A stretch of 64,000 nucleotides of DNA, taken from NCBI GenBank assembly GCA_008632985.1, contig QPGO01000003.1:62001-126000 (forward strand), given 5' to 3'. The notes below the pieces were generated by a model, which saw only the letters and a list, made by a program, of their open reading frames with translations, was not told the DNA's origin and ran no database searches. Position 1 is the first letter of the stretch, and each line of letters opens with the position of its first letter. Shown in pieces: positions 7,384-57,293 of the stretch. The position numbers and the translations under genes were made by a program. The DNA comes from Psammoneis japonica. Taxonomy: Eukaryota.

Positions 7384-7515
7384 CGACGGTAAACGGTCCA
7401 GCCCCGTCATGTGCTGTAGTGCTCAACCTCTATTCTCTAGAGAGAGAAGCAAAAAACTTTGTAATGACTCTATAACAATCCATTGTACTGTCACTAGTAG
7501 TGCTCAGCTGTGTTT

Positions 7516-7869
7516 TTAGTAATCGCCACCCTCGTCCCCGCCAAACATATCCATACCGCCTCCAAGGTCGGCCTCTTCTTCCTCGACCTTTTCTTCTTCC
7601 TTTTCTTCCTCGGCATCACCGCCACCGCCACCACCACCGGCACCTCCTCCTCCGCCGCCGCCACCACCGCCTCCAAACTTGGCAAGCATTTCCGATCCCG
7701 ATTCCATCAATTCGCCCAGGTCCTTTCCTTCCAATTCGGACATCAAAGCCGAGAGACGTTCATCGTCCGACTCGACGCCGACGGCAGCAAGAGCCTTGGT
7801 CACGTCGGCGGCAGTGGGACTATCGTTCCCTCCGAGGACCAACAAGAGATAGGCAGCTAATTCTTTCAT
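7516..7869 (-). CDS. RPLP2: 60S acidic ribosomal protein P2
   Basis: [33 protein letters not shown]...[10 protein letters not shown], a Gly-rich hinge, and an acidic tail [21 protein letters not shown]. Probable 5'UTR intron at 7880-7980. Confidence 0.95.
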
Positions 7870-8444
7870 TGTCAAACTACTAGTGATTGAATAGAAAAAA
7901 TCAGAGGAGCAAAATGTAAGACGGATTCCGTCACGAGAAAATTTCAAAAGTCCGCCAGTACAAAAAACGTAGAATTTTACGAGAGAAAATTTCTCGGATC
8001 AGTGCGGTCCAGACAACACTCCGTTCTCGACGACTTTTTTTATGTTCTTTCGCTTCAAACACCACATACACACAAGACCATTTCATTCGACAACCCCATG
8101 ACTTACATTTGTATTCAAAAAGAGAGTGTATTGGTATGCCTCACAAGCTTGTTTAAACGGTGCTCCGTCGCAAGTGAAGTGAGAACAGATGCTCAGTAGT
8201 AACCGGTAGGCGGGAAAAAAAACGTGCGGCGATCAGGCCATGATGTCGCTGCAGCGCGCGCGCGACCGCGATGGTTTCGAGCTCGGAGCTCGTAAAGATT
8301 AGGAGTTGAAAACGTGACGTCACGAGAAATCAACGTCGCTCGAGATCCTTTTCGAAATTTTGCGAACACAACGCATGGGAAGCGCAATGGCAGAACAGCG
8401 CCGCTAGTACTGTACATGAGAGCGCAATACAACAGCAAAGAGAT

Positions 8445-10085
8445 ATGAATAACCAAACCCAACCATCTGATGCTCTCGAGGAGCGTGAGAAAGCGACGGA
8501 GGCCGACATTGAACTTTCGAAAAGCACGGTAGCAAGATGTGTCGTGACAGCCATGTCCGACTTTGAGCCCATTTCACAAGTCATTCGAGAGAAAAAGCAA
8601 GAAAAGATTCTTGCCGAATTAAAAAAGAATGAAGATGAAGATGAAGAGATTGATTCGATTTCGGACAATGTGGCAACTAGTATGACGGCGTACTTGCATG
8701 ATTTACAAGGTATGGATACTGCTAGTACTACTACTACCCAGGAAGAAACTACGCCACCCGCCGGAGAATCGTTTCGGGATACCTTTGATCGATGGAGAAC
8801 GACTCTAGCTCGTAAGCCTCGCAAGGATCAAGTAAGAACTCCTGCAAAAGAGAGCGTCGAGAAATTACAGAAAGATAAAGTGGAAGAATCTCCTGCGTCG
8901 GTTACTGAAATTAGCACCTTGGAAACCGAGAATGGGAGTAGTGAACAGAATATGGTGCCAGTGATCAAGGAATTCGAAAACGAAAACGTTGCTGCTGATG
9001 ATGATGCAGCTTTGATTATTTCATCAAAGTCTCAAGAGAGCCCAAAAGTGCCGTCCTCTTCACCGTCATCGCTTCTCAAGGTACCCATCAGCACGGAACA
9101 CGCGCATGAGTTTGAAGAACACACCTACCGTTCTCCTACGCACTGTAATATTTGTGACGGTCTCTTGGTGGGTCTTTGGTCACAGGGACTTCAATGCAAA
9201 CATTGCGGTATGAATGTACACCGCGGTGCGGGTGCCAAGAGTGACGAAATTTATGATTGCCGTGCCGAAGCACTGTTGAGCACCAAGTGTTGTCCCGCAG
9301 CAGCCAATACAAAAGACGACGAACAAGAAAAAACCGTAAGCAACGTGTTGCGTGAAGTAAGTGAGCTTGCAAGACAGTCACCGGGTTTCTTTAAACAAGT
9401 CACCGACCAGTTGGATAAGGATATGAAGGCCGTGGCCAAGGATGCCATTGTCAAGACGGGAGTCCAAGAGGAACGATCGAAACGACTTGCGCATGTCAAG
9501 ACGCACGTCACGTGGATTGTGGAGACGGCCGATGCGATTGCCTCACATGGAAGCGCTTTGTCCACTGTGTTTCTCGTGGTCCTTCAGTTGCTTGTCACAT
9601 TGTGTGTAACGACGGTATCGTTTCTGATCTTGTTGGTTTCACTTTGGCTGCGCTTTGTGTTTTTGGCACGAGCTACGGCAATCACGGAGTATCATCCAAC
9701 CATTCTACCATTAGCTTGGCTGCATGTAACCACAATGGGAGCTGCAGTCAACTACATTGGTTTGATTTTGGCACTTGTGTGTTTCAGGCTGTCACTATTA
9801 TTCGCAAGACGAGTCAACATTTACGACCGCTTTTTGCGAGACCTCTTTCAAATCGATGCCCAAGCCGATATTGGGATCTCCGTTGCTGGTGCAGCAGAAC
9901 GAGCTCATACCTGGAGTTTTTTGTGGATTATTTCGAGCTGTGTTTTGTGTGCAGCAATGTCAGTATTTTGGCATTGCCTACAACCAGATCAGTTGGTCTA
10001 TGGGACAATTCAAGAGGCGGAAGCATCGTACCTATGCACTGCTGATGAGATGTTGGAAGAAGAGGCGCTCGTACACGAAACTTAG
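8445..10085 (+). CDS. C1 (phorbol ester/DAG-binding zinc finger) domain protein with C-terminal transmembrane helices
   Basis: 546-aa ORF with [39 protein letters not shown]. About three hydrophobic segments in the C-terminal third. Confidence 0.85.
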
Positions 10086-10183
10086 AAAAGTCGAGTGCAT
10101 CACTCACTAAAAGTAGACATTCTTACAGTTAGAGAAACTAAAACCGCAATTTCTCCATCTATGCATATGTTGTGCATCTTCTC

Positions 10184-10582
10184 CTAACCGAATCCAGGTG
10201 ACTGCTGCGCCTGTTGCTGCTTCTTACCCAACCTTCCAATCATGAATTCGTTCGTATCGAGCCATTTATTCGTAGTACTCGAAATGCAAACCACCTCCTT
10301 GGACGACAAACTGTCCCCACTTGGTTTTCCCGTCACACATTTCTCAAATGCAACGTCACAAATGTTTGTAATGGCCTTTTGAATCAAAGACTGTTGCTGC
10401 AAGGCCATGGCAAACTGCTGCATCTCGGCTTGAGCTCCTCCGGCAGATGGTGCCGATGACATGAGATTATCGCCGCCGCCGCTTGGAAACGACGACGACT
10501 CATCGACGGACGAAAAGTCCTTGGCTTGGGTTGACGACGAAGCGTTGCTATCGTCTCCGCTGCTACCGCCCCAGAATCCCAT
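10184..10582 (-). CDS. Small Tim (Tim10/DDP family, Tim13-like) mitochondrial intermembrane-space chaperone
   Basis: LQQQSLIQKAITNICDVAFEKCVTGKPSGDSLSSKEVVCISSTTNKWLDTNEF matches the small-Tim helix-loop-helix pattern. ATG at 10582. Confidence 0.8.
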   Translation of the reverse strand: MGFWGGSSGDDSNASSSTQAKDFSSVDESSSFPSGGGDNLMSSAPSAGGAQAEMQQFAMALQQQSLIQKAITNICDVAFEKCVTGKPSGDSLSSKEVVCISSTTNKWLDTNEFMIGRLGKKQQQAQQSPGFG

Positions 10583-11002
10583 GGCTATGATGCACTTGTA
10601 ATGAGTGATTTGACGCTGTTTGTGCACGACGAAAGGCCTCGAAAAGCTCGAAGCGACAGCGACGCGACAGCGAATAAGCTGGATGATGGCAAGACGGTCT
10701 CTACACCACCGGCGAGGAAAATGGTACAACAACGCAACTATTACACTCGGCCTCTTTGATCTTCTTGGCCATAGACTCTCTATTTATTACATCACATCAA
10801 AATCTTTCAATCGTCTAATAATATAGTCTAATCGTGAAGTCCGGTAGTCGCAAGATGGTAACAACTCCAAAATTGTAGAGGAAAATGAGTACTCTAGAGA
10901 ATATGACAGAGGCATTCAGCTCGAACTGATGCTCTAGCATTTTGGTGTAGACATACTTTTATTGCATTTTTCGCTTCGACGATATAAGGGTCAAAATTCA
11001 AG

Positions 11003-11959
11003 CTACCTCGATCGGATATTACTAATGCTGGGTTGCTTTCGCTTATTGTTGCTGCCACCACCGCTGCTCCTAATGATTGTTTTTGATTTTTGTTGTTCTG
11101 ATTTCTCTATAAGCTTTTTCTCACGCATCGCCAACGCCTTGACAAGCTTACGCATTTTGGCGCGTTCCTTCTCCACCATTTTTTCTGACTTTTCTTCCAC
11201 CTGCTTGAGCTGGGCATCTTTTTGTTTGAGCTTCTTCTCCAGATCTTGTTTGAACTTCTCGTCCGCTTGACTCTGAACCCGTTTTTCTGCCTCGGCAACC
11301 TCCAATGCGGCTTGCTTCTTAGCTTCCTTTCTGGCACTTTCCTCTGCATCAGCAACACGCTGCGCCATGAGCACCTCCATATTGTTCATCTGACGTGCGG
11401 AGCCTTCCATCAGTTCCTGTCTTGTTTGCTCCAGTTCTGCCTTATGAAACTCCTTTTCTTGCAATGCTTTCGTTTCGAGTTCGTCCTTTGATTGAGTCAG
11501 AGTGTCAATTTGATCGTTTTGTAATTCAATTAGCTTTTGCAACTCTTCTCGAATCCCTTCGAGGGCTTCAATTCGAGCTCTCAGAGTCGCAATTTCTTCG
11601 TTGAGCTCTTTCCGTATGCTGTGAAACGCAGCGGATTTCTCGTGACGCTCCGACTGAAGATGGAGCTGACAACGTTCTCGGAGCTGTGCAGTCTCCTCGT
11701 GAGCTGTGCGCAATTGACGATCCAACACTTCTACTTGCATTTCGAGAGACTTGCGATAGGCCTCTTGAGCTCTTCGTTTCTGAGATGAAAGACCAAACGA
11801 AGGAAACCAACCACCGCCGCCACGGACTGAAACAAGTGAGTGTCTGTCCTTCCAAGATTCTACAGAAATCATGGTAAGTAACATGATAAGGAGTAACATC
11901 GTCCAACGAGCGCTCTTATGCAACAGAAACATGATTGACAGCAACAACAAGTACGACAC
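11003..11959 (-). CDS. Coiled-coil protein with N-terminal signal peptide; start codon uncertain
   Basis: Long E/K/Q/L-rich heptad ORF. Hydrophobic N-terminus followed by VRGG. Confidence 0.7.
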   Translation of the reverse strand: MSYLLLLSIMFLLHKSARWTMLLLIMLLTMISVESWKDRHSLVSVRGGGGWFPSFGLSSQKRRAQEAYRKSLEMQVEVLDRQLRTAHEETAQLRERCQLHLQSERHEKSAAFHSIRKELNEEIATLRARIEALEGIREELQKLIELQNDQIDTLTQSKDELETKALQEKEFHKAELEQTRQELMEGSARQMNNMEVLMAQRVADAEESARKEAKKQAALEVAEAEKRVQSQADEKFKQDLEKKLKQKDAQLKQVEEKSEKMVEKERAKMRKLVKALAMREKKLIEKSEQQKSKTIIRSSGGGSNNKRKQPSISNIRSR

Positions 11960-12574: not shown

Positions 12575-13908
12575 CTAGTACAACGTGCATGTACAAATGG
12601 CGGCTGCAGCTTTTCTCTTACAAGTATGCGACACTGCCCCGGAGCAGCTCTCATTCACCACTTTTTCGGCGGAAAGGCATGCACCACCACGCTTTGTGCA
12701 GTAGCTTTCGCATTTTCCGCCGCCCAAGTCGGCATAAAAGGTACACCCAGAATTGTCCGCGCTACACATGCTAGTTCGACGGCTTCCATACTTCTTTGAG
12801 CATAAATCATTTATTGTTGTAGAAACACTCTTTGGCGGAGGTGGCTTCTTGAACGTAGTCGCGTTCGATGTCGGTGATGGAATTGTGTTGGATGTCGACG
12901 GCGTGGGCTGCTCGGTTTGCACAATCTTGGGTGGAGGTGGCTTCTTGAACGAAGTCACCTTTGGAGTCGGTGAAGGAGTTGGGTTTTCCATTGATAAAGT
13001 CACTGGGCTCGTTGTGGGCGCGGAGGTAAGCACAAGCACTGGTTCTTCGCTCGTCGCTCCGTTGTGAGCGGTGAATTGAAAGCTCGGATCACTTGAGGAT
13101 GTCACCACTCCATTGACTTCTTTCGAAAACATCGTTGATGAGAACATTATCTCTTCGCAATCAAATGAAATAACTTGTGTGAGATACTCGTTCATCCATG
13201 TTTCAAAGCTGGGTTCGAGTGAACCGTCGTTTGGGGCAGACTCCAAGGCTCGTCTTGCGTCCTTGTCGTCGTTGAGACACAAGTCACAGGTAGCCTTGAT
13301 GTTGAGGCTGAACTTGCGTCTTTTCCTTCGTGTCCCTTTCTTCCTCCGTCTTTTTCCTTGAGGGCCAATAGAGTTAAACGCCGCTTGGACTAGAGCTTCC
13401 GCAACCTCGTCGACGGGGTGATCTTCCAACGGAACCTTCTGCTTGGTAACAAGTTCATCACCTTCAAACACGCGCAATCTTGCGGCATCATGGTTTACTA
13501 CGGTCATGGAGATTTTTTCCTCGTCTTGGTGAAATAATATTCTGCTTATCGCCCACTCGATGCCGTGGTGCAACTGCCTGACTTTGGTTTCGTTGTTTTT
13601 CACATGTTGAGCGTATTGAGCATAATACTTCTGGGCAAAGTTGTTCATGTTTGATGCCATTGACTTTTGAATGCACACGACAACTCCATCGGACGGCCCA
13701 TTGTCGTTGTCATCCGGCCCTCCTTCGGCCACATCTTCCTCCATATCAATCATGTAACGGTACGTCACGTCATCGGAGGCTTGTTCAAGATCCCGTTGCG
13801 CTGACTTCAGTGGATCGCCTCGTAAAGAAGCATTGGCATTCCCACAAAAGCAGGCTGCTAGCATTGATGTTGACCGCAGAATGCTAGTGAGAGAGATTCC
13901 CATGGTCA
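12575..13908 (-). CDS. Secreted protein with polybasic tract, Pro/Thr-rich linker and C-terminal 10-Cys module (paralog A)
   Basis: Signal peptide, SLRG and RDL motifs, KRRRKKGTRRKRRK, and FKKPPPPK repeats. Collinear with 14576-15916. Confidence 0.85.
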
Positions 13909-14575
13909 TGCAATCAGTTCGTTGTTTTTTCTCAACATTCGAGCGAGGAGGGATCACAAAGAGATTTGATTATTGCCCCCTTTGTGACCAGTTTCATCTC
14001 CCACTATGACTTTTTAAAATGCACACTAATGTTCCTCGTGTACTTTCGACATTCTGCGAATAATGACTTTCATTTTTTTCTCTACTGTCTTGGTCTGGCT
14101 TGGTCGTAGAAATGTCGTAAAAATAGACACGACGATCGACGGTTCCTTTTGATAGACTCGTCATTTAAGCCCTCCAGTTGTGGCAGGCACTGCAGCGCGC
14201 AGTGGACTTCAGCTCAATGATGGGGATTACCAATGCCAGTGGTAGGCTAGAGTATGCACGACCATCATGTGAAGTTTGTCAATCCATCCTCTTGGGAGAA
14301 AAAAGGAAGAAAGACTACCGTAGACTACTAATGGAGCTTCAATGAAAATGTTCCCCTTGAAAACACAGTGCCAAACGACACAAGAAAACCGTCCCGTTTT
14401 CTGAACGCAAACCGAAATCTCACGAGTCGTCGCCAACAGAAATTATGCTAACTGCTACCTGTCTAGTGCAAACCGCTTGTGGTCACCCCCACAAATCGAC
14501 ACCCTGAATAATGAAAGTATGCGTTTATAGAGTAAAATAGGTTAGCAGAAGGCAGGAGCATTATTTTGTACCAAA

Positions 14576-15916
14576 CTATAACGTGCAGGTACAAATGGCG
14601 GCGGCAGCTTTTCTTTTACAACCGTGTGACCCTCCACTGGAGCAGCTCTCATTCACCACTTTTTCTGCTGAAATGCATGTCCCACCTCGTTTTGTGCAGT
14701 AGCTTTCGCATTTTCCGCCGCGCAAGTCGACATAAAAGGTACACTCAGAATTGTTCGCGCTGCACATGTTCGTGCGACGGCTTCCATACTTCATTGCACA
14801 GCCAATATTCATTGTGGTGGAAAAATGCTTTGGTGGAGGGGGCTTCTTGAACGTAGTCATGTTCGATGCGGGTGATGGAGTTGGATTGACTGTTGATAGA
14901 AGCAGTGAGGTCGTGGGTTGAGAGGTTGGCGATCTTTTAGGCGGAGGCGGCTTCTTGAACACCGCCACGCTTTGTGTAGGCGACGGAGTTGATTTGTCTG
15001 CTGCTGGATGACTTGGGCTTGGTGTGGGTTGGGAGGCTATTAATAGGAAAGGTTCTTCGCTTGGGCCTCCTAAAGGGGAATTGAATTGAAATGTCGCGTC
15101 ACTTGAAGACGTCACAACTCCGTTCACTTCTTTGGAAAACGTCGTTTCTGTAAACATTATCTCCTCGCAATCTAACGATATCACTTGTGAGAGAAACTCA
15201 TTCATCCAGGTTTCAAAGCTAGGCTCGAGTGAGCCGTCTTCAGGGGCATCCTCAATGGCTCGCCTTGCGTCCTTGTCGTCATTGAGGCATAGGCTGCAGG
15301 CAGCCTTGATATTGAGACTGAACTTGCGTCTTCTCCTTCGCGTCCCTTTCTTTCTCCGTTTTTTTCTTTGAGGACCGACTGAATTTCCTGGAGAGGTAAA
15401 TGCCGCTTGGACTAAAGCTTCCGCAATCTCATCTACAGGCCGGTCTTCTAATGAAACCTTCTCCTTAGCAACGAGTTCGTCGCCATCAAAAACCCTCAAT
15501 CTTGCGGCATCGTTGTCTACTACGGTCATAGAGATCTTTTCCTGGTCATAATTGAATAGTATTCTGTTTATCACCCACTCTGTGTCTTGGTGCAATCGCC
15601 TTCCACTGGCTTCTTTGTGATCGAAATTTTGTGCGTATTGAGCATAGTACCTTTGAGCAAAGTTGTTCATATTCGATGCCATTGACTTTTGAATACATAT
15701 GACAACTCCATCCGATGGCCCATTGTCATTGTCATCGGGCCCTCCCTTATCCACATCTTCCTGCATGTCAATCATGAAACGGTACATCACATCGTCGGAT
15801 GCTGCTTCCAGATCCCTTTGCGCATTCAGGAGAACGCCGCGTAAAGAAGCGCTAGCTATCCCACAAGCTGCTAGTAATGATGTTGCCCGAAGGGTGTTGA
15901 TAAGAGAGATTCCCAT
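14576..15916 (-). CDS. Secreted protein, tandem paralog B of 12575-13908
   Basis: Same architecture, with long identical peptides (GGPDDNDNGPSDGVV, DGSLEPSFETWMNE, GGKCESYCTKRGG). Confidence 0.87.
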   Translation of the reverse strand: MGISLINTLRATSLLAACGIASASLRGVLLNAQRDLEAASDDVMYRFMIDMQEDVDKGGPDDNDNGPSDGVVICIQKSMASNMNNFAQRYYAQYAQNFDHKEASGRRLHQDTEWVINRILFNYDQEKISMTVVDNDAARLRVFDGDELVAKEKVSLEDRPVDEIAEALVQAAFTSPGNSVGPQRKKRRKKGTRRRRRKFSLNIKAACSLCLNDDKDARRAIEDAPEDGSLEPSFETWMNEFLSQVISLDCEEIMFTETTFSKEVNGVVTSSSDATFQFNSPLGGPSEEPFLLIASQPTPSPSHPAADKSTPSPTQSVAVFKKPPPPKRSPTSQPTTSLLLSTVNPTPSPASNMTTFKKPPPPKHFSTTMNIGCAMKYGSRRTNMCSANNSECTFYVDLRGGKCESYCTKRGGTCISAEKVVNESCSSGGSHGCKRKAAAAICTCTL

Positions 15917-16019
15917 GGTCGTTCAATCAGCCTTGTCCTTTTTATTAGTTCATAATCGTGAAAGGGCTTTTTGTGCACAGTCAACACAGTCGATGGGTGG
16001 TTTTGGCAAGGGCATATTT

Positions 16020-16036
16020 GTGTGTGTGTGTGTGTG
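16020..16036. repeat. (TG)n microsatellite
   Basis: gtgtgtgtgtgtgtgtg seen directly. Confidence 0.8.
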
Positions 16037-16165
16037 CACAGGGCTAAGTGTCTAATTTACGACTACCGGTACAAGCATGGACGAGCCACAGGTCTGTCTC
16101 ACAATCCAAAGATCAGAGATTTCGCATGATGACTCGTACATAAGACAAAAAAAAGTGCCAGTTAA

Positions 16166-16559
16166 GGGGGGTCATCCCCGCGTTTATCCTAAAATTACCG
16201 TTGCATTTGAATAAGGTTTTTTATAGTGTTTATTTTTGAATACAAGAATTATTCATAGTCACACCCGATCGCGCACGAAAACGAGAACCATCACCACCGC
16301 GACCGAAGCACGACGATGATGACAATCATCGACATTTCTCAAAAACGTAGTTTGCCGTCTACCAACTTTTCATGTATATACAATCTTTGATACATAACAA
16401 ACATAAAATAAATGAGAGTTGGTAGACAGACCACCTCCGTCACAGACTTATGGCTTGTTGTTTTCACCACGGTGAAGCACGGTGAAATTCAGGAAAAATC
16501 ATGCAAAACACGAGCTGTTCGGCCGAATTCGAGCTAAAAAAAGTGGCAACCGACCACCC
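16166..16559. mobile_element. Putative non-autonomous DNA transposon (MITE) with TTAA flanks (Kolobok-like termini)
   Basis: TTAA-GGGGGGTC ... GACCACCC-TTAA. Internal inverted repeat gtctaccaact / agttggtagac at ~16357-16427. No coding capacity. Confidence 0.5.
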
Positions 16560-16571
16560 TTAAAAGGAAAG

Positions 16572-16738
16572 TGCAGCAACTCACTTGCACGCTTCTGATG
16601 TACAGCATCAATGGTTTTGGACATTAGATTAACGTAGCCGTTTGAGAGAGGCTCGCCAGCGTTCGCCAACGCTTGGGCTCCCCTCTCTTCGGTCCACTCA
16701 CTTCTTTGTTTTGACATCAGTTTCAGCTTGAGCTTGCA
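16572..16738 (+). repeat. 5' LTR (167 bp)
   Basis: TG...CA termini. Direct repeat of 21854-22017. Confidence 0.95.
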
Positions 16739-16949
16739 CTGCAATTGCAGTCGGTTGCAAAGAGCTGAATGAGAAACAACGATGCAACTAATGGGCTTGC
16801 GAAACAAGAGAAAAGAACATTGAGAGCGAAGGCAGCGAACTGGGCTTTGGAACAAAAACGGCAAAAGGAGACACGAAAACAATGCGAACAGGATTTGGCG
16901 ATTCGGGTTGCACAGCTCGAGTCGAAGGTAGAGTGCTTGAAGCAGTTTC

Positions 16950-18188
16950 TTGGAGGACCAACTTGGCCTGATGAGCAATCGCGAGAGCCTCAAAGAACCG
17001 TGCATTTTGCATGCTGTGAAATTTGCTCACTCGGATTTGGAACTTGTGAAGTTGACTCAATCGCATGATGATGGCAGCACGCGTACGAAGAAGTGCCCTT
17101 GTTTTGATGGAACTGATGGCATTGAAGCACTGTTGTTCGTGGAAGATCGTTTTCGCAAACTGGCTGCAAAACTTGAACTCACTGCAGGCGAAGAACTGTT
17201 TGACAATTTCGAGGAAGTGTTGGCAGATGCCGCTGAAGATGAATGGTCCAATCTCACCATGGCAATTCCGAATGTGCAGAAGACGGTGGCTCGTTTTGAC
17301 CAAGAATTGGCTCGTTTTTATTTGTCACATTGTGAAACTGAAGCGCGTGACACGATGATTGAATGCTTGCTCTCTCTTAAAAAGCCACATGATGTTGAAG
17401 TGCAGGCACACGCGGATCGAATGGAGACCTCAGTGCGACACATGAACAAGTTGCCGGGAAATGATCCAGTTGTCACTCAGAACCAGAAGAAGAAGATGAT
17501 CTTTGATGGCTTCCCTTTGTCGTGGCACGAGATGCACACAAGAGCAGGACGCACGATTGGAAATGATGCGTTGGCGGAAATTGTCGCGCATGTGAGCACG
17601 GAGAAATCATTTGCAGACAGGAACAAGAAGACTTCGAAGAAGCGCAAAGACGGAGAGTCGAAAGGTGGCGGCTCTGCCAAGAAGAAAGGCAATCGCATTG
17701 ACCCAGAATCTCAATGTCCTTTGCATGCTCACAACCACAAGTGGAAAGATTGCGTCATGAATCCCGACTCCAACAACTGCCGTCCAAGAACTGATCGCGG
17801 AGGTCGCGGACATGGTGGCCGTGGCGGTCGAGGTGGCGGTCGAGGTGGAGGTCGTGGTCATGGCGGAGCGCAAGGTCGTGGTTGGCAAGGCCGTGGCCAT
17901 CAAGGTCATGGTGGTGGCCAAGGAAACTGCGGTGGTCGCGGAAACTGCAACTCTGGCGGCAACAGCGGCGAGCATCATGATGATGGTGGCTCTCACATGC
18001 AATGTCAAAACGACACCCGAACCAATGCAGATGGCGGCGGTTGCGGCAATCCGGCCAGAACGGCTCCTCCCAATGATTGGTCTGCTGAAAGCCATCATCT
18101 TGATTCGACAGGAGGGCCTCGAGAGCATCGAGGTGGAACGGGAAGTTTTCGACCTGGTGGTCGCTTCTCGGGACGCGGTCGACACTGA
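16950..18188 (+). pseudogene. Gypsy gag (mutated)
   Basis: Open 412-aa frame with zinc knuckle CPLHAHNHKWKDC and an RGG-rich tail. Only one Tyr. Confidence 0.85.
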
Positions 18189-18239
18189 CCCAATGAGCTT
18201 GAAGAGCTGTCGTCCGAGTGTGTCGCTCCTGATTCTTGT

Positions 18240-21200
18240 GTGTTTGATGATTGCACTGATTGCATTGATGATTGTCATGCATGTGCTGCTGATTCATTTG
18301 ATGATGACGATTTCGGAAATTGCACCATGAATGACGAAGACGATGTGGGACTTGAGTGCACTGTGCCAACTCCAAAAACAAAACCAATTGAACCATTGAA
18401 CATGGTCCCTGCAACCTTGTTCGCGGCGCGATTCATTCAAGACAAGGAAAGCAAGCGTGTGATGCGGGTGTCATTTGATTCCGGTGGAACCCATTCAATG
18501 ATTCATGCTCGGGTGTTGCGGTTGGAGCGGTTCCAGCATTGGAAGAGACAGGACCGATTCGTGCAAAGTTCAGGACAACAGCAGGAGAATTCGAATCAAC
18601 TCGTCATGCTCGACTGCAGGACTTGGTGCTCCCTGAAATCGACAAGACCAAACATGTTGACGGCATGCATGCGTGTGTGTTTGACTCACCCTGCCAATGT
18701 GACATGATCCTTGGACAGGACTTCTTGGCGAGAGCGGGCATCACATTGGATTTCGAACACGGAATTGTCAAGTGGCTTGGTTCAAGCATTGCGATGAAGC
18801 CGAGGAATCAGCGGACCAGTGTCCAGCAATGGCTCGATGATTTGACTGATGAGCCAGCTGATGATGATGACGTGTGGGATGGCTGCATCCTCGATGCAAA
18901 GCATGAGGAGACGTCCCCTTCTGAAGCGGCTTCAGCTCAGAAGCATCTCACTGCCGAAACAGCAAGAGAAATTGCGTCTCGTGTTGGAGAAACACACCAC
19001 TCTTTTTGATGGCACCCTTGGCAAGCATGCTGGCGAAAAAGTTCACCTTGACATTGACCCTAACGCCGTTCCGCACCATTCTCGAGCGCATGCAGTGCCG
19101 CACAATGATCTCGAGACTTTTGAGCGAGAATTGGATCACTTGGTGGCTCTTGGCGTTCTTGAAGAAGCCGGAACTTCGGAATGGGCTGCAGGTGCCTTTA
19201 TTCAGCCAAAGAAAGATGGTCGAGTGCGGCGGCTCAGCGATTTTCGGGAACTCAACAAAGCCCTCAAGCGCAAGGTTTGTCCCTTGCCGATCATCCAAGA
19301 TGTGTTGCAAAAGAGAGCCGGGTGCAAATTTCTTACAAAGTTGGATCTCTCAATGATGTGCCACACGTTTGAACTGGACGACGATTCCAAAGATCTGACG
19401 ACAATCGTGACACCCTTTGGAAAGTGTCGACACTGCCGTCCAGCAATGGGTTTGAAGCCGGCTCCGGATGTTGTGCAATGCTTGATTGAGAAAACTGTGC
19501 ATGACTTGGACGTTGACGCGTGTGTTGATGATCTCGCTCAATTTGATGACAATTTTGATGTTCACCTTGCTCGTCTCGACAAACTCCTGCAACGTTTGGA
19601 AGAAGCTGGATTTAAAGTGAATCCTTTGAAATGTGAATGGTGTGTGCAGGAAATGGATTTCCTTGGGCATTGGCCAACTCCGACTGGAATTCATCCGTGG
19701 AAGAAGAAAGTGGAAGCCATTCTGCGAATGCAACCTCCGGAAAATGTCAAACAGCTTCGTTCGTTTCTTGGTGCTGTGACATGCTGTCGCAACATGTGGC
19801 CTCGGCGTTCTCACTTGTTGAAACCCTTGACAGATCTCACAGGCAAAGGCTCGTGGACGTGGACAGCAGATTGTCAGGCAGCGTTCGAAGAGATGAAAGC
19901 AGTGCCAATGGCCGAGACGTTGATGGCGCATCCGAATCATGACAAACCCTTCCATGTCTGTGCCGATGCCAGTGATTGCCAAACAGGCACAGTGATTGCA
20001 CAAGACGGAAAACCCATTGCATGCTGGTCTCGAAAGCTGAGCACGGCGCAACAAAACCACTCAACGATCGAAAAAGAACTCTTGGCCATTGTCATGTGCT
20101 TCCGCAAATTCCGAACGATGCTCCTTGGCGGCGACTTGCATGTGTTCACCGGACCACAAGAACCTTGCCTTTCGCACCTTGAATTCACAACGTGCACTCC
20201 GTTGGCGCCTCTTTCTGGAAGACTTTGCCCCTCAATTCCATTGTGTCAAAGGCCGCTTGAATGTCTTGGCTGATTGTTTTTCTGTTTGCCTTGCACGGAT
20301 CCTCCCTCTGAAGGGAAGAGCTTGGCTCCGGGTGAAGGAACTGTTGTTGATTTTGCTCGCTCGATTCGAAGTTGGTCCCGAGTGAGGAACCATCCGAAGT
20401 CGAGGATTTCCGCGATGAGGACTTGGAGCTCGGCGCATGCCGATTCAAGTGTTGTCGCAACATTGAAAATGAAGGCCACTCACACTTCTTCTCTTTCTTT
20501 GTTGATGAGCTGGAACTGTTCGACTCCTTTTTGAATCACCCTGCGATGCAGGAGATGCAAAATCCAATGACGTTACAACGGATTCAAGAGTGCCAGTTCG
20601 AGGACCAACAATTGAACCAGATGCGCATTGCTCACCCTGATCATTTCCTCGTGGAATGTGTGAACAATCGACCGCTTGTGTGTCATCGCATGCGACCAAA
20701 TGATCCTCCAGGACAGTGGAAAATCTGTTTGCCGACTGCGCTCATGCCCAACATTTTATGATGGTGTCATCTCGTCCTTGGCCATGCCGGAAGCCAGCGC
20801 ATGCGTGAAACAATCCAGGCTCATTGTTGTCACCCTGGGTTGCGTCGCATGTGTGATGAACATTCTTGCGCTGATTGCCAATGCAACAAAACTTGGGGTC
20901 CTGGCTGTGGAGAGCTGCCCGAACAAGAAGCTCCATTGACTCCCTGGTCGGAAGTGGCGGTTGACCTCATTGGCCCGTGGAAAATCAAAGCACCAAATGG
21001 AGAGATTGAGTTTCGGGCGTTGACCTGCATTGATCCTGTCTCTGATCTTGTTGAACTGGCGAGAATTGAGAACAAAACTGCTTGACATGTTGCCAACCAA
21101 TTCGAGAACTGCTGGCTTGCACGCCATCCCAGACCGAATCGATGCATCCACAATGACGGCGGCGAGTTCACCGGGTGTGAGTTTCAGATGCTGTTGCAAC

Positions 21201-21730
21201 AAGCCGGAATTGATGATGTGCCGACTGCTTCACACAACCCTCAAGCCAACGCTGTTTGTGGGCGAATGCACCAGACTGTCGGCAATGTGCTGTGCACGCT
21301 CATTGCTTCCAATCCACCTCAAAACCTTCAGGATGCAGCCAGCCTCGTGGACGATGCTTTGGCAACTGCAATGCATGCAACCCGCTGTGCTGTTTCCCGT
21401 TCCTTGCAGATTTCACCAGGTGCCATGGTGTTCGGACGTGACATGATCTTGGATGTCCCAGTGCTGGCGGATTTGTTGATGATTCAAGGCCATCGCCAGA
21501 TGCTGATCAACAACAACTTGCGACGAGCTGATGCCAAGAGAAGATCCTGCGATTGTCAAGTGGGTGATCAAGTTCCAATCAAGCACGTTGAGCCATCCAG
21601 ACTCGAGCCTCGTGCTCATGGTCCTCATCCCATTGTTCAAGTGCGTGCAAATGGCACAGCCTCAGTTCGTCAAGCTCCTCATGTGGTTGAGCGCCTCAAC
21701 ACTTGGCGCCTGATTCCTTTTCGTGGTTGA
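18240..21730 (+). pseudogene. Gypsy pol (protease, RT, RNase H, integrase) with frameshifts, TGA stops and Tyr>Cys/His changes
   Basis: PR: RVSFDSGG...[49 protein letters not shown]...CADC, VAVDLIGPW, HNPQANA. Confidence 0.95.
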
Positions 21731-21853
21731 TCAGGGGGTTTTCTTCCCAACACCTGGGTTTCCTCCTGTTGTTGTCTTTGCTTTTGGTTTTGGTCCTTGG
21801 TTTTTGGCCCTTTGCATGATCCTCCAGTTCTTTCGGATCATGGAAGGGAAGAG

Positions 21854-22017
21854 TGCAGCAACTCACTCACGTGCTTCTGACACATGGCATCAATTTTGGA
21901 CACCAGATTGACGCAGCCGTTTGAGAGAGGCTCGCCAACGTTCGCCAACGCTTGGGCTCCCCTCTCTTCGGTCCACTCACTTCTTTGTTTTGACATCAGT
22001 TTCAGCTTGAGCTTGCA
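21854..22017 (+). repeat. 3' LTR (164 bp)
   Basis: Follows the polypurine tract and is followed by the GAAAG target-site duplication. Confidence 0.95.
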
Positions 22018-22266
22018 GAAAGAAGAGAGTCATCTGTGTTCTGAATTCCACACATGTTGAACATGGAGATTCTTTGTCGCATCCACCGCCTGCAACAGCG
22101 CTGCGCTCCCATGATTTCGTTCCTGCACTTTTGATTGAGCCCACATGTGCCCTGCTGTCGCCATGTTGCAAGCTTGAGAGACTTTTCATTTTTGAGCCCT
22201 TGGCATGCTGCACATGACCTTCGCATGTTACGACGCATTGCGTGCCACATCACAACGCGTAGACTA

Positions 22267-22956: not shown

Positions 22957-25900
22957 ATGAGGAATGCATTCTTTCGCATGCCGTTGCCGTCTGCAGTAAC
23001 ATTGTTATCATTCATCATCCTACAGGTTGCTCGTTGCCAATCATATTCACGAGACATTGACCCACTCAAGGAAAGGCCGCGAAAAAAGAACAAGGACAAG
23101 TGGCTCCAAGAGAATGCCGGTAGTGCCGAAATCCTTAGAATCGCCGCTGATGATAAAAAGGCACTCCCCGAAGAGTTCTCTCTCTTCGTCAAGTACAAAA
23201 ACAGAAAAGGAAAGTCGTTTGCGAGGAAGGCGTCGAATACTTTCGAGAGACTACCCAAGCATCCCATTGTATCAATCGAAGCAAAGAACAAAGATGCACT
23301 GCGTTCATTGCTGGACGATCCCAATATTGATTTCGTTGAGGTCAATCACAAGATGCATGCGTTGCAACAACTAGACCATTCCACGGTGTCATTGTCTCCC
23401 GAGGAACGAAACCGGCGTCTCATGCAACTTGTCGGGTACGGCATCAAAATGGTTCAGGCGGACCAAATGTGGGACATTCCAAGAACCTCTCATCAAGAGA
23501 AAGACATGACTATTTGTGTTATTGACAGTGGCATGGCATTTGGACATCCTGATCTCCCGACCGAAGGCGTCACTGGGACAAGCACCGGAATGGGCGATTG
23601 GAAGGTCGATGAGTACGGCCACGGCTCACATTGCGTTGGTACGATAGCGGCGCTCGGAAACAACAATCTTGGTATCACTGGTGTGCTTGGAAACCTAACT
23701 GGTTTTAACCTCCATATCAGCAAGGCCTTGAATAAGAGAGGTGATGGCTCAGAATTCCTAGTGTTGCGGGCCCTTGATGGATGCATCACGGCAGGTTCTA
23801 AGATCATAAGTATGAGTATCGGGGGTCCAAGAGTAAGCGATCTCACCCGCGATGCGTTCCAGAAGGCGTACGACGCTGGTGCCTTGCTTTTAGCTGCATC
23901 TGGCAATGCTGGTGATACTGCATACTCTTTTCCAGCCTCTTTCTCTACCGTTATGTCGGTGTCTGCAGTTGGAGAAGACGAAGACATTGCAACTTTTTCC
24001 CAGTACAATGACCAAGTGGAGATTGCTGCTCCTGGCGTCCGTATTTTGTCTACTGTCCCTGTATCCGGTGGACGATACGGCATTGGTTCCTGGAGTGGTG
24101 CGTGTATTGAAAGCCCAATGGACCAACGTTGTACACCTACACTAACTCCTTCTTTTTATTCTTCCCTCCAGGTACAAGCATGGCAACACCTTTTGTAGCT
24201 GGCATTGCAGCCATGGTTTGGTCTCATTTTGAAGAATGTACTAATCACCAAATCAGGAACGTTCTGATCCGAACCGCAAGAGACTTGGGAGAATCGGGTT
24301 GCGACCACGACACGGGTTTCGGTATTGTGCAAGCAAAGGCGGCCTATGATCTTTTGAAACGTGAAGGATGCACAGCAGGTGGTGAGTCTCCAAAGCCACT
24401 TTCAAAAGGAGCCGTTGGTGGTTGCCAGCAAGACCCTTTCTATACCCAGCCTCCCACACCATCTCCTACAGAGTTTCCATGTGACGAAAAGGTGTTTATG
24501 CTCAATCTGACGACAGATGAGTGGGGTGAGGAGACCTCTTGGACTCTCATGAATTCGACAAAGGGTGTCATCGAAACGGGGTCGCGGTATAAGGCGAATA
24601 GAACGTACGCCACGTGGCTCTGTTTGCCCCTTGATAGCTACGTCTTTACCATAGAAGACACAGAGGGTGATGGAATCTGTTGCGACTACGGAAACGGTAG
24701 CTACTCGCTGTACTTTGATGGTGAGCTTGAGAAAGCTGGTGGCGAATTCGGAAATATGGAAGTAGTCAAGTTTGGTATTAAAAGATCATCTGGTGACGTT
24801 TCATCCGAAGATGGCTCATCTCCCAACACTCCGATACGAACTTCATCACCTTCAAGCATACCGACAAGCCCTTTAAACACGGAATCTGGGAAACGACCGC
24901 TAAGGGTACCGTGTATCGACGATCAAGCTTGGGTATTCAAGACGAAGAAGGGGCTCGAGAAGCGCTGTAGATATCTGAAATCCAAATCCGAGTCGAGGTG
25001 CAAGCTAGTTGGAAAAAGAGCAAACGGGGATCAAGCATCCGGCTTCGAAGCTTGTCCATCTACCTGTGGGTCCTGTCCCGAACCCGATACGACTAGCACT
25101 GTCACGCTGTCGCCGACTTTGTCGCTTTCTCAAAGTCGATCGTCGCTCACTCCATCTCCAACAAGTCAGCTTACCTCGCTACCAACTAAGCAGCCAACAA
25201 GCAACCCAACTTCACGGCCAACGACGACCCCAACGTTATCCCCTACATCTCAGCCAACTTATTCACCGACGAGCGCAACATTGTCTCCTACAAGTTGGCC
25301 TACGTTGTCCCCTACGAGTGGGCCTACGTTGCCCCCAACAAGGCCTCCGACTCCCTCTCCAACAATCCAGCCTACGTTGGAGGCAACCAATCCCCCAACC
25401 AACAAGCCCACCTCATCGCCTTCCCGAGCGCCTCCTATTGCCGCTCCCACCGGCACCGATTCAAATGCAGCTCGCAGTAGCACCATTAAAAATGAATCGG
25501 AATGCCACGACGATATGGATTGGGTCTATACCGTAAAGGGCAACCCAAAGACCTGCAAATATGTTGCGAAGGCACCTAACAAGCGGTGTCAGTCTTATGG
25601 GGTGAATGGCAATGGCGACTCAGTATCTGGCGTCGTTGCTTGTCCTTTGTCGTGTGGGGTATGTAGCGTCAGCGCGTCGCAAACGACTCCGGCTCCGTCG
25701 CCATCGCCTATCGCAACACCCTCGTCAACAGAAGGTCCTCCCTGTGAGGATGACAAAGACTGGCACGCTAGCATGTTTGGCCATCGGATGGATTGCAAAT
25801 ATCTGGAGACGAAATCCTCTTCCTGTTGGTTACCTGGCAGGAACGCCAAAGGAGAAACGCAGTCGGGTTACGATGCTTGTCCCGTCGCATGTGACACTTG

Positions 25901-26810
25901 CCCGGTGTCGACCATCATACCGTCAACACTGTGCAATGTTGGATACAAAGCAGGCATTCACTTGTGTGATGAAGATGAGGCAGAAATGGAATGCAACGTG
26001 TACGTTGAGCTTGATGGGGACAGTTGCGATGATTTTTGTGCACAGCAAGGAGGCACTTGCATCTCGGCGTCTGGAGTGGCTGGTCCGGGTGCTACCTGTA
26101 GAACCGCTCATCCGAGTAGATGCAGCTATCCGAGTTCCCGCAATGTTTGCAAATGCTCATTGAGCGACAGCAACGTTCAGTCAGCAGCGCCTCCGCAAGT
26201 GGCGTCATCCTGTAATGATCTCAATGGCGATAGTCTGCTCATGTGCGAAGAGAGTGAATCACAGTGTTCTGCTTACGTAAGATTGCACGGCAAAAGTTGT
26301 AAGGACTTTTGTGAGCGGCAAGGGGCGTCCTGCGTATCGGCAGTAGAAAGTCGTGGCCACACTGCGAAATGCAAAACCTCGTGGCCCGAAGATTGCAGTG
26401 ACAGGGCGTACACGAGCATTTGCACTTGCGAGCTGGGTGGCGGTGGCAGCACCAGTAGAGGCACACCACCACCACCTGCGGCAGCCACACAAAGTTTCCA
26501 AAGAGACGACGGCATGGACATCCGCTTGTGCGAGGTCAAGGAATCAGAAGGCACAGCGAACGTGCAACTAGATGGCCACAGCTGCAATGATTTCTGTAGA
26601 CGCCGAGGTGCGATCTGCATTGCCGCGTTCGAAAGCAGAAGCGAGCGCAGCTGTTCCAAATCTGGCACGTCATTCTGCAGCCGGGAACATTCAAGCGACA
26701 GAACATGCACGTGCTCCTTTGACACTGATCAAGTTACGCCAGCCACACAACCAACAGGGAGCATTAGTTTTTGGAGCGGTCATACAAGCAGATACCATTT
26801 TCCCCACTAA
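22957..26810 (+). CDS. Secreted subtilisin-like serine protease (S8) with multidomain Cys-rich C-terminal extension
   Basis: VIDSG, HGSHCVGTI, ASGN, and SG|TSMATP across intron 24098-24171. Signal peptide and pro-domain. Then a TTDEWGEETSW...GDGICC domain, three ShK-like ACPxxCxxC modules, PT repeats and three copies of a ~10-Cys module. Confidence 0.93.
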
Positions 26811-28523: not shown

Positions 28524-30247
28524 CTATTTCGCATAAAACAAGCACGACTTTTTACACTTTTTCAATCCACACCCCTGACATTTGCCGGATGCACCCTTGG
28601 TACTCAACTTTTGCTTTTCCTTCTTGAGATTTTCCTTGGCCTTCTTTTCTCGTTCCTCTTGTTGGGCAAGATGATCCAGCTGCCGTTGTGCCTCCATGGC
28701 TTGTTTGAATTGCGATCGTTCCTCCTCTTCTCGCTTTTTCAATGCCTCTTGTCGTTTCGTTTCCTCCTCACGTTCCTTATCAATTTGACCTTGTTCCTCT
28801 TGGACCTTGTCGTGTGTCTCTTGCATCGCCATGGCAGATTCGTCCATACTAGAATACCCCAATGCCTTTGTTAAATTCTCGAGTGCTTCCAGAGCGGCAT
28901 CCCGAATTTCTTCAAATTGTACATTTTGAGCCACCTTTTGCAATTCCGGAACAAGCAATGGTCCAAAGGGTTTTACGGATGAGGGTTCATCGACGAGTTT
29001 ACTCATGTTGGAAATGACCAAACACGCCGATCGTTTGTGAATGGCCAATTTTTCCTTGAGACCACGTGCCAACACGGGACACAATATGGACAACGTCGAT
29101 GCATCCACGGCCGTGACAAAGGTGGTGGCCATTAATTCTTGAATGGCCTTGGTGACAAGTGTCGGTTTACAAATGGCTTGTACAACGGCAGGAATGGCCG
29201 GTGCCACATCGGGATTGGGATTGGAACGACAGAGTGCCAACAAGGTCGTGGAGGCTGCTTTCGAGACTTGTGCCTTTGTATCCCAAACTTGTCCAGTAAC
29301 AATAGGGATCAAGTCGGGCAACAATTTGTAAACCAATAGTGGTTCCTTGGTGGCACATTGTGCCAACCGTTCCATGGCATTGTACTTGACTCTCCATTCC
29401 GTCGATTGTTCCAACGATTGAACCAACACGGGAATGGCCAGTTTGGAAAGAGCGTAGCCATTCATGAGTTGAATCAAGGACGACGATGCGTCTTCGGCGG
29501 CTTGTCGTACCGTACTCTGGGTACTGCCACACTCGTCCAACGCTGCCGCGAAAAAGCCATGCATCATCAAGTACGGTTCTGCCATGGTTCCAAGAGCTTC
29601 CGCCAAGGCCCGGACCAAGAGCAAACACCCCTCGCGTGCCACAGCCGGAGTCGTCTTGCCACGCTTGGAATCGGTACCCACCGTCGTGGCGGTGGTGTTG
29701 GCTGTTTCTAACTGGCCAAACTGGCTGTCGATGCCGAGTGTGGCATATTGTTTGCAGTAGAATTACGAGCAAAAAACAATCCATCCATGCCATTTTGAGG
29801 TAACAACGTGGATTGCATTTGAAGCAGTACGCCACATTTCTTGAGTACAAAGGATATACCAAATTCACGACACAGTACCGCAACGTCGGCAGCCGCACCG
29901 GCACGATCCCGTGTAGTGCTGGCGGTTTTCGTGGGTGCCTTGAGAAAATCAGCAGCATGGAGCTCTTCACCCAGGGTCTTCAAAAAGTACAATTCCACCA
30001 ATTCACGTTTCTTTGCATCATCAGAAATGGATTTCAATTCTTGTACAGATGCATCCGTCTTGTAAGCGACAGGTTTCAAGGGAGGAGCAACCGAACCGCG
30101 ACGACCACCCAATGCAGGTTTTTTTGTTAATTGCTTCTTCTTGTTGAGAGTTGTTGCTGAACCGATTCCAATTTTCGTGCTCTTGCTTACACCAGGTTGT
30201 TTTTTGACCTTGATGGAATGGGTTGTTGTTGCACCAATCGTTGCCAT
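28524..30247 (-). CDS. HEAT-repeat protein resembling the eEF3/GCN1 N-terminal region, lacking ABC domains
   Basis: WRVKYNA, LIPIVTGQVWDTKAQVSKAA, NPDVAPAIP, ATTFVTAVDASTLSILCPVLARGL, IKRSACLVISNMSKLV-like (HKRSAC). Coiled-coil and CQGCGLKKCKKSC tail. Apparent 1-nt frameshift at ~29710 joins ORFs 29708-30247 and 28524-29681. Confidence 0.85.
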
Positions 30248-30879
30248 TGTCTTTGTATTTTCTTACCGGAAAACACTCTCTACAAAGTAGAAAACAGATA
30301 CCGTATGCAAAACAGCAACAACGAAACGAAACACGAGAAAAAGTTATTGTGGTCCTCGCTATTTTTTTTTCTGCGGTTGGCGGTTGGCAGCGAAAAAAAT
30401 GTGTGGCCACGCGACATACACGACCACGCACGCAACGACGTGTCCGAACCACGTCTGACGATTGTCACAGACACACAAACACAACACACGGTCAGACACA
30501 CAATTATTGTGTCAATTTGTGATGTCTTGGGGTTCTCTTTTTTCATTCCCGATTGCAGAAATGTTCCCTGACAGCATCCAAAATGGCCGACTGATGACAA
30601 CCTGACATTCTTTGCCTGCCAAGAGAGCATCCCCAAGAGGGGGGGCTGTGCACACACAGGCACCACACAGCTCTCCAGAGCAAGTGTCTGCCAGACAGAG
30701 CCAATCTTCAAACAATCATCATGGCCAACAATGATGGCGCTTTTGGAGATGCTGGGAACAGTTTGGAGAATGCACCAAGTGTTTCTTGACTGGCCTGCAT
30801 GGTCACAGCTCATGAGCCAGGTCACTTGTTGTTTTTGGGCAAAGAGGGCGTGTGTGACCAGCTTTTGAACAAGTCGGCC

Positions 30880-31200
30880 AACCTCTCACCCAAACAAGGT
30901 TGGCCCCATCTCTGCTGACATTTGCTCCAAAAAAGAAACGCAATTTGTTGTGCTTCCCAAATTTAAATTCCACAAATCAGCGTTCCCCGAATGTGCATTT
31001 CGGTCGGACCAAATCGGCACTTTGGTCAGACGAAATTTGTTGACAAATTTGATGCTCGTGACCAAAGTGATTTTGTTTCCCAAAAATGTCATTTTGGCAG
31101 GAGGGGGGGGTGAAATGCTTTTGTCGACCAAATTGCCAGACCAAACAAATCAATTTGGTTAACCAAATTGACGTTTGCAAAATCTCGACCAAATTCATTT
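30880..31200. repeat. Cluster of GACCAAA(T) motifs in both orientations, probably transposon subterminal repeats
   Basis: Repeated gaccaaat / atttggt / tttggtc. Confidence 0.5.
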
Positions 31201-43710: not shown

Positions 43711-43769
43711 TCCCTTGCAATGGAAAAAACACCCTTGAGCTGTGCAAAGTCTGGCGGAGCCCATTTCCT

Positions 43770-57194: not shown

Positions 57195-57293
57195 AAAATC
57201 GAAATTTTCATTTTCCCCTGTTTTTTGCGCATTTTCAAACTTTCGCGCGAAGCGATGTAGGCTGGGTGGGTGGTAGTTAACGTTCGTTAATGC

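Follow-up and report, generated by a model that had tools for sequence, protein, structure and literature searches.

TpA dinucleotides are largely rewritten to TpG or CpA in a Ty3/gypsy-type retrotransposon of the diatom Psammoneis japonica

The DNA analysed here is a 64,000-nucleotide stretch of the Psammoneis japonica assembly GCA_008632985.1 (contig QPGO01000003.1, positions 62,001 to 126,000 of the forward strand), referred to as the window and numbered from its first letter. It holds a long terminal repeat (LTR) retrotransposon of the Ty3/gypsy type in which about 94% of the TpA steps are rewritten to TpG or CpA. In a 1-kb profile the TA loss is confined to integrated foreign or mobile DNA, with normal host DNA around it. 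The parts of the element and its borders are collected in Table 1.

Table 1. Features of the retrotransposon and its borders (window positions; ORF, open reading frame; TSD, target-site duplication; o/e, observed/expected ratio)
Feature	Position	Strand	Remarks
LTR retrotransposon, Ty3/gypsy-type	16572-22017	+	direct LTRs, TSD, polypurine tract, pol order
Left TSD, GAAAG	16567-16571		identical to 22018-22022
5' LTR, 167 bp, TG...CA termini	16572-16738	+	4 TA kept, TA o/e 0.40
Leader behind 5' LTR	16739-16940	+	
gag-like ORF, 415 aa, one Tyr	16941-18188	+	ends at TGA in frame with next ORF
Protease-region ORFs, two frames	18189-19009	+	frameshift near 18518; resemble N-terminal parts of homologues (13 and 60 matches)
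Reverse transcriptase-RNase H ORF, 475 aa, 0 Tyr	18846-20273	+	frameshifts near 18956 and 20150
Integrase region, three ORFs in one frame	20351-21730	+	TGA at 20759-61 and 21083-85 between the ORFs
Polypurine tract, GGAAGGGAAGAG	21842-21853	+	abuts 3' LTR
3' LTR, 164 bp	21854-22017	+	0 TA left
Right TSD, GAAAG	22018-22022		
Downstream flank with signature, beginning at right TSD	22018-22228 (211 bp)		TA 0; TG o/e 1.83, CA o/e 1.73, CG o/e 0.55

The order protease, reverse transcriptase (RT), RNase H, integrase is that of Ty3/gypsy elements, the protease and integrase being placed via alignment to homologues. A Pfam search left six of the seven element ORFs without a family, including the gag-like, protease-region and integrase-region ORFs, and assigned the RT-RNase H ORF to RVT_1 (2.8e-13), RT_RNaseH_2 (2e-26) and RT_RNaseH (4.1e-18). 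Homologues bearing PF00665/PF17921 align through their C-terminal parts with the integrase-region ORFs, and the gag-like ORF contains an Arg/Gly-rich repeat with a 9-nt period at 17797-17959. The closest protein relatives are 59% identical, and those with names come from the diatoms Cylindrotheca, Cyclotella, Thalassiosira, Nitzschia and Chaetoceros. The host gene at 28524-29762 (below) likewise points to a diatom, one that lacks a close sequenced relative in the collections searched. No primer-binding site was recognised behind the 5' LTR (no tRNA comparison was made), and no second copy of the family was found elsewhere within the window. Both LTRs begin with TGCAG and end with TTGCA. The TSD is perfect, as the first-pass annotation of this DNA had stated; its suggestion of older TGTA...TACA termini is unsupported, as all four termini read TGCA. 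The pol region carries three frameshifts and two internal in-frame TGA stops, and the multi-copy Ty3/gypsy-type family is represented here by a dead copy. With this damage the earlier description of the element as young is not supported, and the same annotation's statement that the mutation happened quickly is likewise unsupported.

The direction of the change can be read from the tyrosine codons. We aligned the six pol ORFs to 120 homologues and took as conserved those columns in which at least 70% of the homologues have tyrosine. All 18 such columns now encode Cys (TGY, 10 columns) or His (CAY, 8 columns) in the window, and the six ORFs are devoid of tyrosine altogether (0%, versus 3.9% in the homologues), with an RT catalytic motif that reads CVDD. 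Because tyrosine codons contain TA and no CG, the ancestral state at these positions was TA. The same alignment includes 2-3 cases of Leu replaced by Pro at CCA codons.

The composition of the whole element agrees in kind: 15 TA are kept where ~241 are expected (o/e 0.05), a value that together with the tyrosine columns upholds the first-pass proposal that TA is ancestral and that TG and CA are both derived from it. The other ratios are 1.28 for AA, 0.99 for AT, 1.24 for TT and 0.84 for CG (295 CG). For comparison we used 78 related gypsy loci, drawn from the best 80 of 398 confirmed metagenome matches and thus a set that favours intact copies; their TA o/e lies between 0.45 and 1.00 (median 0.73), and the signature is absent from these related elements elsewhere. 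Against their median the element is short of 226 TA and 31 CG and has gained 139 TG and 75 CA, a balance that fits TA→TG/CA with a small CpG contribution. Codons and composition together establish the direction of the change, its dinucleotide specificity and both of its products. GC-biased gene conversion was rejected as a cause because AA, AT and TT are not depleted, and a native avoidance of TA in the lineage was rejected on account of the TA content of the relatives, the loss of the catalytic tyrosine and the broken reading frames.

A more serious alternative is that CpG deamination alone produced the pattern, in which case the family would have carried CG at the sites where one LTR has TG and the other CA, and the TA of the 5' LTR would be double hits; the first-pass annotation had itself set this ancestry against its own account. 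Diatom transposons are CpG-methylated, according to the part of PMC9998398 available to us. Element-wide such an ancestry fails, as the conserved tyrosine codons hold TA and no CG and yet are all TGY or CAY, Arg changes in the pol alignment are few (Arg to Gln 3, Arg to Cys 1), and with CG at 0.84 the CG deficit of ~31 stands against ~226 missing TA. The tyrosine columns and the mass balance refute CpG deamination as the sole cause, which we regard as barely credible; it survives as a minor parallel process.

An independent record of the process is provided by the LTR pair, since both LTRs derive from a single template when an element integrates. TA and CG each read the same on both strands, and a hit therefore yields TG or CA according to the strand on which it falls; LTRs identical at insertion and hit independently thus come to show TG against CA, or TA against TG or CA, at the same sites. 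The two LTRs differ by one 3-bp indel (16612-16614) and 14 substitutions, all of them transitions with no transversion, at (5'-LTR coordinates) 16586, 16587, 16589, 16590, 16599, 16600, 16601, 16603, 16604, 16624, 16625, 16631, 16635 and 16659. Two host-gene paralogues from the same window and of comparable overall divergence show 147 transitions and 132 transversions; at such a transition share, the probability that all 14 substitutions are transitions is P = 1.3e-4. Twelve of the 14 differences fall in pyrimidine-purine dinucleotides (TA, TG, CA or CG), and LTR-divergence dating, already called invalid for this element by the first-pass annotation, is indeed so because these dinucleotides are hypermutable. 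Discordant dinucleotides comprise three CA/TG, three CA/TA, and one each of TA/TG, CA/CG and CG/TG; those left unchanged are CG/CG (7), CA/CA (14) and TG/TG (9). In the two CG-type discordant sites CG stands opposite CA in one and opposite TG in the other. The 5' LTR has TA at 16601, 16625, 16630 and 16635, where the 3' LTR has CA, CA, TG and CA, respectively. All the LTR strings quoted in the earlier annotation are present in the sequence, and the distal part is nearly identical as it reported, with a single difference in the 102 bp of 16637-16738. A 26-base stretch of this conserved part had no match in metagenome_contigs.

The LTR pair by itself cannot give the direction of change, because TA→TG/CA and CG→TG/CA leave equal discordance. 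The first-pass annotation had reconstructed a TATATA ancestor for one group of sites and TA ancestry for others; here the TA process itself stands and the site-by-site reconstruction stands in part. In the cluster at 16586-16591 each window LTR retains one CG, and because of this a CG-type ancestor is the simpler one there, a point in favour of CpG deamination. The LTRs of other copies of the family are visible only as a loose-end consensus of five contigs (agreement 0.92, median length 14), which is weak evidence. It reads CG, CA, CG at 16586-16591, and CA, CA, TA at 16599-16604, where TA is thus backed at one of three sites. It also has TA at 16609-10, where both window LTRs have CA. To judge from these few contigs, one of the three TG/CA-discordant LTR sites looks TA-ancestral and one CG-ancestral, and the third looks undecided.

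At insertion the LTR would have held up to about seven TA per 167 bp (four kept and three TG/CA-discordant), which is a normal density. Because the 5' LTR holds four TA that are lost from the 3' LTR, the element was TA-normal on arrival and was depleted later. The downstream flank points to the chromosome as the substrate: from the right TSD on, 211 bp are without TA (P = 1.4e-5 at the TA density of the flank), TA resumes at 22229, and the next 570 bp are normal (TA o/e 0.78). On the other side TA sites reach 16561, 10 bp short of the 5' LTR. A contig from sequencing run X1, with a depth of 49 where neighbouring flank contigs have ~48-68, bridges the end of the 3' LTR and the 211-bp flank, which looks single-copy. 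A flank that was never in the element's RNA carries the signature, and this is the best argument available for a process that acts on the chromosome. Together, the TA retained in the 5' LTR and the TA-free flank lend indirect support to the first-pass proposal that chromosomal DNA was mutated on both strands after integration. This junction contig (21988-22292) departs from the window at three places (contig/window: 22205 CG/CA, 22223 CA/CG, 22236 TA/CA). Either errors of assembly or a second haplotype or strain that shares the insertion could be the source of these departures; should they be allelic, CG- and TA-type transitions took place once the element had inserted.

The alternative is editing before integration, by an adenosine deaminase acting on the element's RNA and on the DNA intermediates of reverse transcription (minus-strand DNA and plus-strand strong-stop DNA), in which copies arrive hypermutated and the LTRs differ by the timing of their templates. 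Such editing would suit the facts that all identifiable affected sequences of the window are retroelements (the gypsy element and a relic resembling a long interspersed nuclear element, LINE) and that family copies differ mostly by transitions, and late minus-strand editing would predict the more heavily mutated 3' LTR (0 versus 4 TA). It does not account for the 211 bp of flank or for the differences between junction contig and window at CG/TA-type flank places in the same insertion. The two products are similar in number (10 TGY to 8 CAY), a TA loss of ~94% is extreme for one replication cycle, and an RT without tyrosine could not sustain more. The one precedent, in Bigelowiella natans (below), is chromosomal and lies in a single-copy DNA-virus insert. 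We judge editing before integration improbable. The first-pass annotation had used the LTRs to argue against RNA editing and RT error. The LTR pattern is indeed unlike either; the argument weakens in that editing of DNA intermediates at the RT stage could also split the LTRs, and the flank is the stronger evidence.

The affected domain shows polarity and is shifted towards the 3' side. Conversion is less complete in the 5' LTR and the initial 0.8 kb, and complete in the 3' LTR and downstream flank; of the 15 TA that remain, nine fall within the first 810 bp (P = 7.6e-5). On the sense strand TG gains are ~1.8 times CA gains (139 versus 75), a surplus that the 10:8 split of the tyrosine codons does not reproduce. 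Polarity, with the 5' LTR edge spared and the domain running on into the 211 bp of flank, and TG surplus hint that the process may be coupled to transcription of the sense strand, initiated in the 5' LTR and continuing past the 3' LTR.

Other copies of the family were compared by means of sequencing reads. Three coded runs from one sample and one study were available; X2 gave cover on the flanks only and X3 gave none, and the comparison of copies comes from X1, with uncovered parts left out of the evidence. Contigs of X1 match the unique flanks without mismatch at a word depth of ~50-130. Over the element the bins have summed depths of 1200-3600 against the 50-130 of the unique flanks, which is why the family is put at tens of copies. 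Among the 2669 X1 contigs on the stretch, 530 are at least 99% like the window, 700 are 95-99%, 973 are 90-95% and 466 are below 90%, and relative to the window the contigs show 394 transition places and 63 transversion places. In the leader, 16758-9 is CA in the window and TA in 12 of 12 contigs of other copies. At each of the three frameshifts (near 18518, 18956 and 20150) the window is set apart from other copies by a 1-bp indel; behind 18518 those copies have an extra C. The internal TGA at 20759-61 and 21083-85 are CGG and CGA, respectively, in every X1 contig there (6 and 10 contigs), and family CG has become window TG or CA at 11 of the 34 best-supported places of difference; those 34 come from 40 of the 460 variant places, a listing that favours sites where other copies agree. 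Both observations speak for CpG deamination, and a second, weaker CpG→TpG/CpA decay also affects this copy.

These data also bear on whether the TG and CA are an assembly or base-calling artefact, that is, whether the true DNA has TA, perhaps modified, that is mis-read in repeats which cannot be polished. Consistent with an artefact, the effect is limited to repeats, the window's letter is missing from the contigs at many places in the element, the library type of X1 is unrecorded, and all three departures of the depth-49 junction contig are CG/TA-type transitions. If the ~226 lost sites were really TA, the likeness of contigs to the window would be capped at ~96%, yet 530 reach at least 99%, and family TA against window TG or CA should dominate the best-supported differences, where it makes up 2 of 34. 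A word depth of ~50 on the flanks and mismatch-free contigs of 500-800 bp would fit accurate reads that read modified bases normally. Moreover, three homologues with tyrosine changed to Cys or His (below) stem from unrelated public assemblies, and Illumina mutation-accumulation data show the process to be real in another alga. An artefact is therefore very improbable.

Several of these observations nevertheless weigh against a TpA-specific process after integration as the explanation. Among the 34 best-supported differences, family TA has become window CA at only two, compared with the 11 CG→TG/CA changes and with 12 transitions outside pyrimidine-purine steps, and at three sites all other copies have CA and the window has TG; neither these sites nor the 12 transitions are fully explained. 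The unrecorded library type and the frequent absence of the window's letter from the contigs count here as well, as does the tendency of contigs to drop rare variants. In the LTRs the five-contig consensus backs TA at one of the three TG/CA-discordant sites, with CG at one and CA at one. The 211-bp flank could be an older mutated fragment. All clearly affected DNA in the window is retroelement, a type of target that leaves a process at the RNA or cDNA stage possible. Lastly, copy number alone is not the trigger, because the sequence at 16136-16703, with a summed depth of 6900-11700, keeps its TA. This sequence lies just upstream of and overlaps the 5' LTR, with many internal joints among its copies, and may belong to a short repeat of very high copy number that the TA process passes over; TA at 16100-16571 is normal (o/e 0.65) despite the very high copy number, and an Rfam search of 15800-16900 gave no match.

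Taking these points together, we consider it probable that after integration a TpA-specific A:T→G:C process rewrote the element in the chromosome, with a slower CpG decay alongside. Such a process would convert TA to TG or to CA by A:T→G:C transitions on either strand, and the slower CpG→TpG/CpA decay would proceed in parallel, as expected for methylated transposons. Its target may be silenced or foreign sequence in the chromosome, against which it would defend the genome, and its chemical step could be deamination of an adenine preceded by T, the resulting inosine being read as G. A more specific version is a diatom genome defence similar to the repeat-induced point mutation (RIP) of fungi with the opposite chemistry, in which retroelements that have newly integrated would lose their TpA, almost to saturation, to a DNA adenine deaminase or a comparable activity in a manner coupled to sense transcription; this we put forward tentatively, as a possibility that is rather less probable than its opposite.

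The same substitutions would also arise if the modified base were thymine. In dinoflagellates, 5-hydroxymethyluracil replaces thymine preferentially at TpA, and a T in TpA so modified could mispair or be mis-repaired in silenced DNA to give T→C. As TA is palindromic, T→C on one strand equals A→G on the other in every count made here. Nothing in the analysis favours a modified T in diatoms, and the authors of the B. natans study, in the portion of their preprint available to us, favour an ADAT2-like adenine deaminase, likewise without proof. Thymine modification is accordingly an unlikely explanation.

The closest known system is found in the chlorarachniophyte B. natans, a rhizarian: its mutation-accumulation lines gained 231 new mutations in the integrated DNA of a giant virus and a virophage, 230 of them A→G or T→C changes, and these were all at TpA (10.64898/2026.01.13.699255). 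In the part of that preprint accessible to us the TpA mutation rate is ~6e-7 per site per generation, in some lines only; the authors propose an ADAT2-like DNA adenine deaminase and liken the process to RIP; and they describe TpA-poor clusters rich in CpA and TpG, the TpA-poor coding sequences being enriched for reverse transcriptase and DDE domains (10.64898/2026.01.13.699255). As far as this portion goes, the resemblance lies in A:T→G:C changes at TpA, in TpG or CpA as the product according to strand, and in foreign or mobile DNA as the target inside a normal genome. In contrast to the integrated viruses of B. natans, it is LTR and LINE-like retroelements that are hit here, and the host is a diatom, a stramenopile; the terms 'diatom', 'stramenopile', 'retrotransposon' and 'LTR' are absent from the text of 10.64898/2026.01.13.699255. 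The element is near saturation (TA o/e 0.05), whereas the viral region of B. natans has 0.45, and the diatom locus also shows decay of CpG, a polar distribution over the element and an extension into flanking DNA. The B. natans lines yielded de novo mutations, whereas the evidence here is comparative only.

The element also resembles targets of fungal RIP, with transition-only, dinucleotide-biased hypermutation of repeated or foreign chromosomal DNA that kills transposons and lets paralogues diverge independently, and fungal RIP can spread into neighbouring sequence. In the available part of PMC2621366, fungal RIP causes C:G→T:A changes, typically CpA→TpA, and enriches TpA; here, unlike in RIP, TpA is destroyed and the direction is A:T→G:C. 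Diatom DNMT4 enzymes are related to the RIP factor RID, according to the accessible part of PMC9998398. Methylation-driven CpG decay likewise turns CpG into TpG or CpA on either strand and leaves TG/CA-discordant paralogues, and it is minor in the element and strong in older blocks of the window; it differs in that here TpA is removed and tyrosine codons are made Cys or His, and in that the CG deficit is ~31 and that of TA ~226. Clustered transitions that inactivate retroelements are also made by APOBEC3 on minus-strand cDNA and by ADAR hyper-editing of double-stranded RNA, and ADARs prefer a U before the edited A (cited in the available part of 10.64898/2026.01.13.699255). Editing by APOBEC3 or ADAR is strand-biased, precedes integration and spares the flanks, whereas here the hits are shared almost evenly between the strands (10:8), the two LTRs are unlike and the flank is mutated too. 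Full-text literature searches, with subscription journals and bioRxiv supplements outside their scope, did not uncover a description of diatom DNA that loses TpA or undergoes RIP-like mutation.

The signature recurs elsewhere in the window. In the blocks at ~30.5-54.2 kb and ~57.3-62.7 kb the TA o/e is 0.00-0.11 and the CG o/e 0.05-0.55, and in 30500-54200 TG and CA reach o/e ~1.4-2.2. CpG decay, for which the low CG of these older blocks speaks, prevails within the window in such older repeat blocks alone, and TA is lost there as well. A repeat pair (33347-34562 and 60533-61759; 76.5% identical, 191 transitions, 82 transversions) has 46 CA/TG-discordant sites, compared with two in the host paralogues of similar divergence. 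At nearly the same offset 30168-30259 matches 57294-57385 (89%), which makes 57290-62700 and 30168-35600 collinear; these are probably two copies of one element, nearly unalignable through independent mutation. LTR pairs were not found in the other TA-poor blocks of the window. On the minus strand of 43639-52101, five long ORFs are what is left of a LINE-like retroelement: six relatives (one carrying RVT_1) match one of them and 849 another, the matches being to the C-terminal parts of long proteins, and the long relatives show weak RVT_1 and zf-RVT matches (below Pfam cut-offs) and one Exo_endo_phos match above the cut-off. In the retroelement ORF at 46556-47842 (minus) four tyrosines are changed to Cys and two to His. 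The depleted blocks within 30500-63000 are rich in stop-to-stop ORFs of 150-440 aa, in either orientation; 29 of the 35 listed ORFs lie there, each with 0-1 Tyr. TA-free DNA cannot hold TAA or TAG stops, so long spurious ORFs result and gene callers would over-predict. In a Pfam search of the 29 ORFs of 30.5-63 kb, 27 had no family, the others being a host M64 peptidase and a below-cut-off GSAP-16; the ORFs of 30500-54200 gave no Pfam family.

Beyond the window, three homologues in the set of 120, which stem from other public samples, carry Cys or His at most of the conserved tyrosine columns and have a tyrosine content of 0.8-1.5%. Their residues in these columns are Cys 8, His 5, Tyr 3, Phe 2 (P0010), Cys 6, His 2, Phe 5, Tyr 3 (P0030) and Cys 5, His 1, Tyr 3, Phe 1 (P0098), and three control homologues keep 14-16 Tyr at the 18 columns. 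P0010, P0030 and P0098 were judged on protein, their DNA lying outside the 78 fetched loci, and they suggest that the same TA→TG/CA mutation occurs in gypsy elements of other organisms, which means that the signature is not restricted to this genome.

The element thus indicates TpA hypermutation, of a kind described once before in the 2026 preprint, in a new lineage, the diatoms, and in a new class of target, the retrotransposons. It has long been asked whether organisms other than fungi have genome defences that work by RIP-like mutation, and to this question the locus adds a diatom case near saturation, with the LTR pair and the flank placing the mutation after integration. Transposon proteins without tyrosines escape domain searches, as seen in six of the seven element ORFs and 27 of the 29 block ORFs. 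An enzyme behind the process, if there is one, would amount to a naturally occurring A-to-G editor of DNA that works in a defined sequence context. Should the diatom defence be real, it would be a natural source of such a TpA-specific A:T→G:C editor, and the rhizarian together with the three unrelated environmental elements would point to an old and widespread defence of the stramenopile-alveolate-Rhizaria (SAR) lineage.

The window also holds host genes. Two tandem paralogues (12575-13969 and 14576-15922, minus strand) are 77% identical in DNA and encode Pro/Thr-rich, secreted-looking proteins with a Cys-rich terminal module. Similar Cys-rich modules are repeated several times at the end of a long subtilisin-linked ORF at 24111-26810 (plus strand). 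An elongation-factor-3-like gene at 28524-29762 is 62-64% identical to many diatom proteins.

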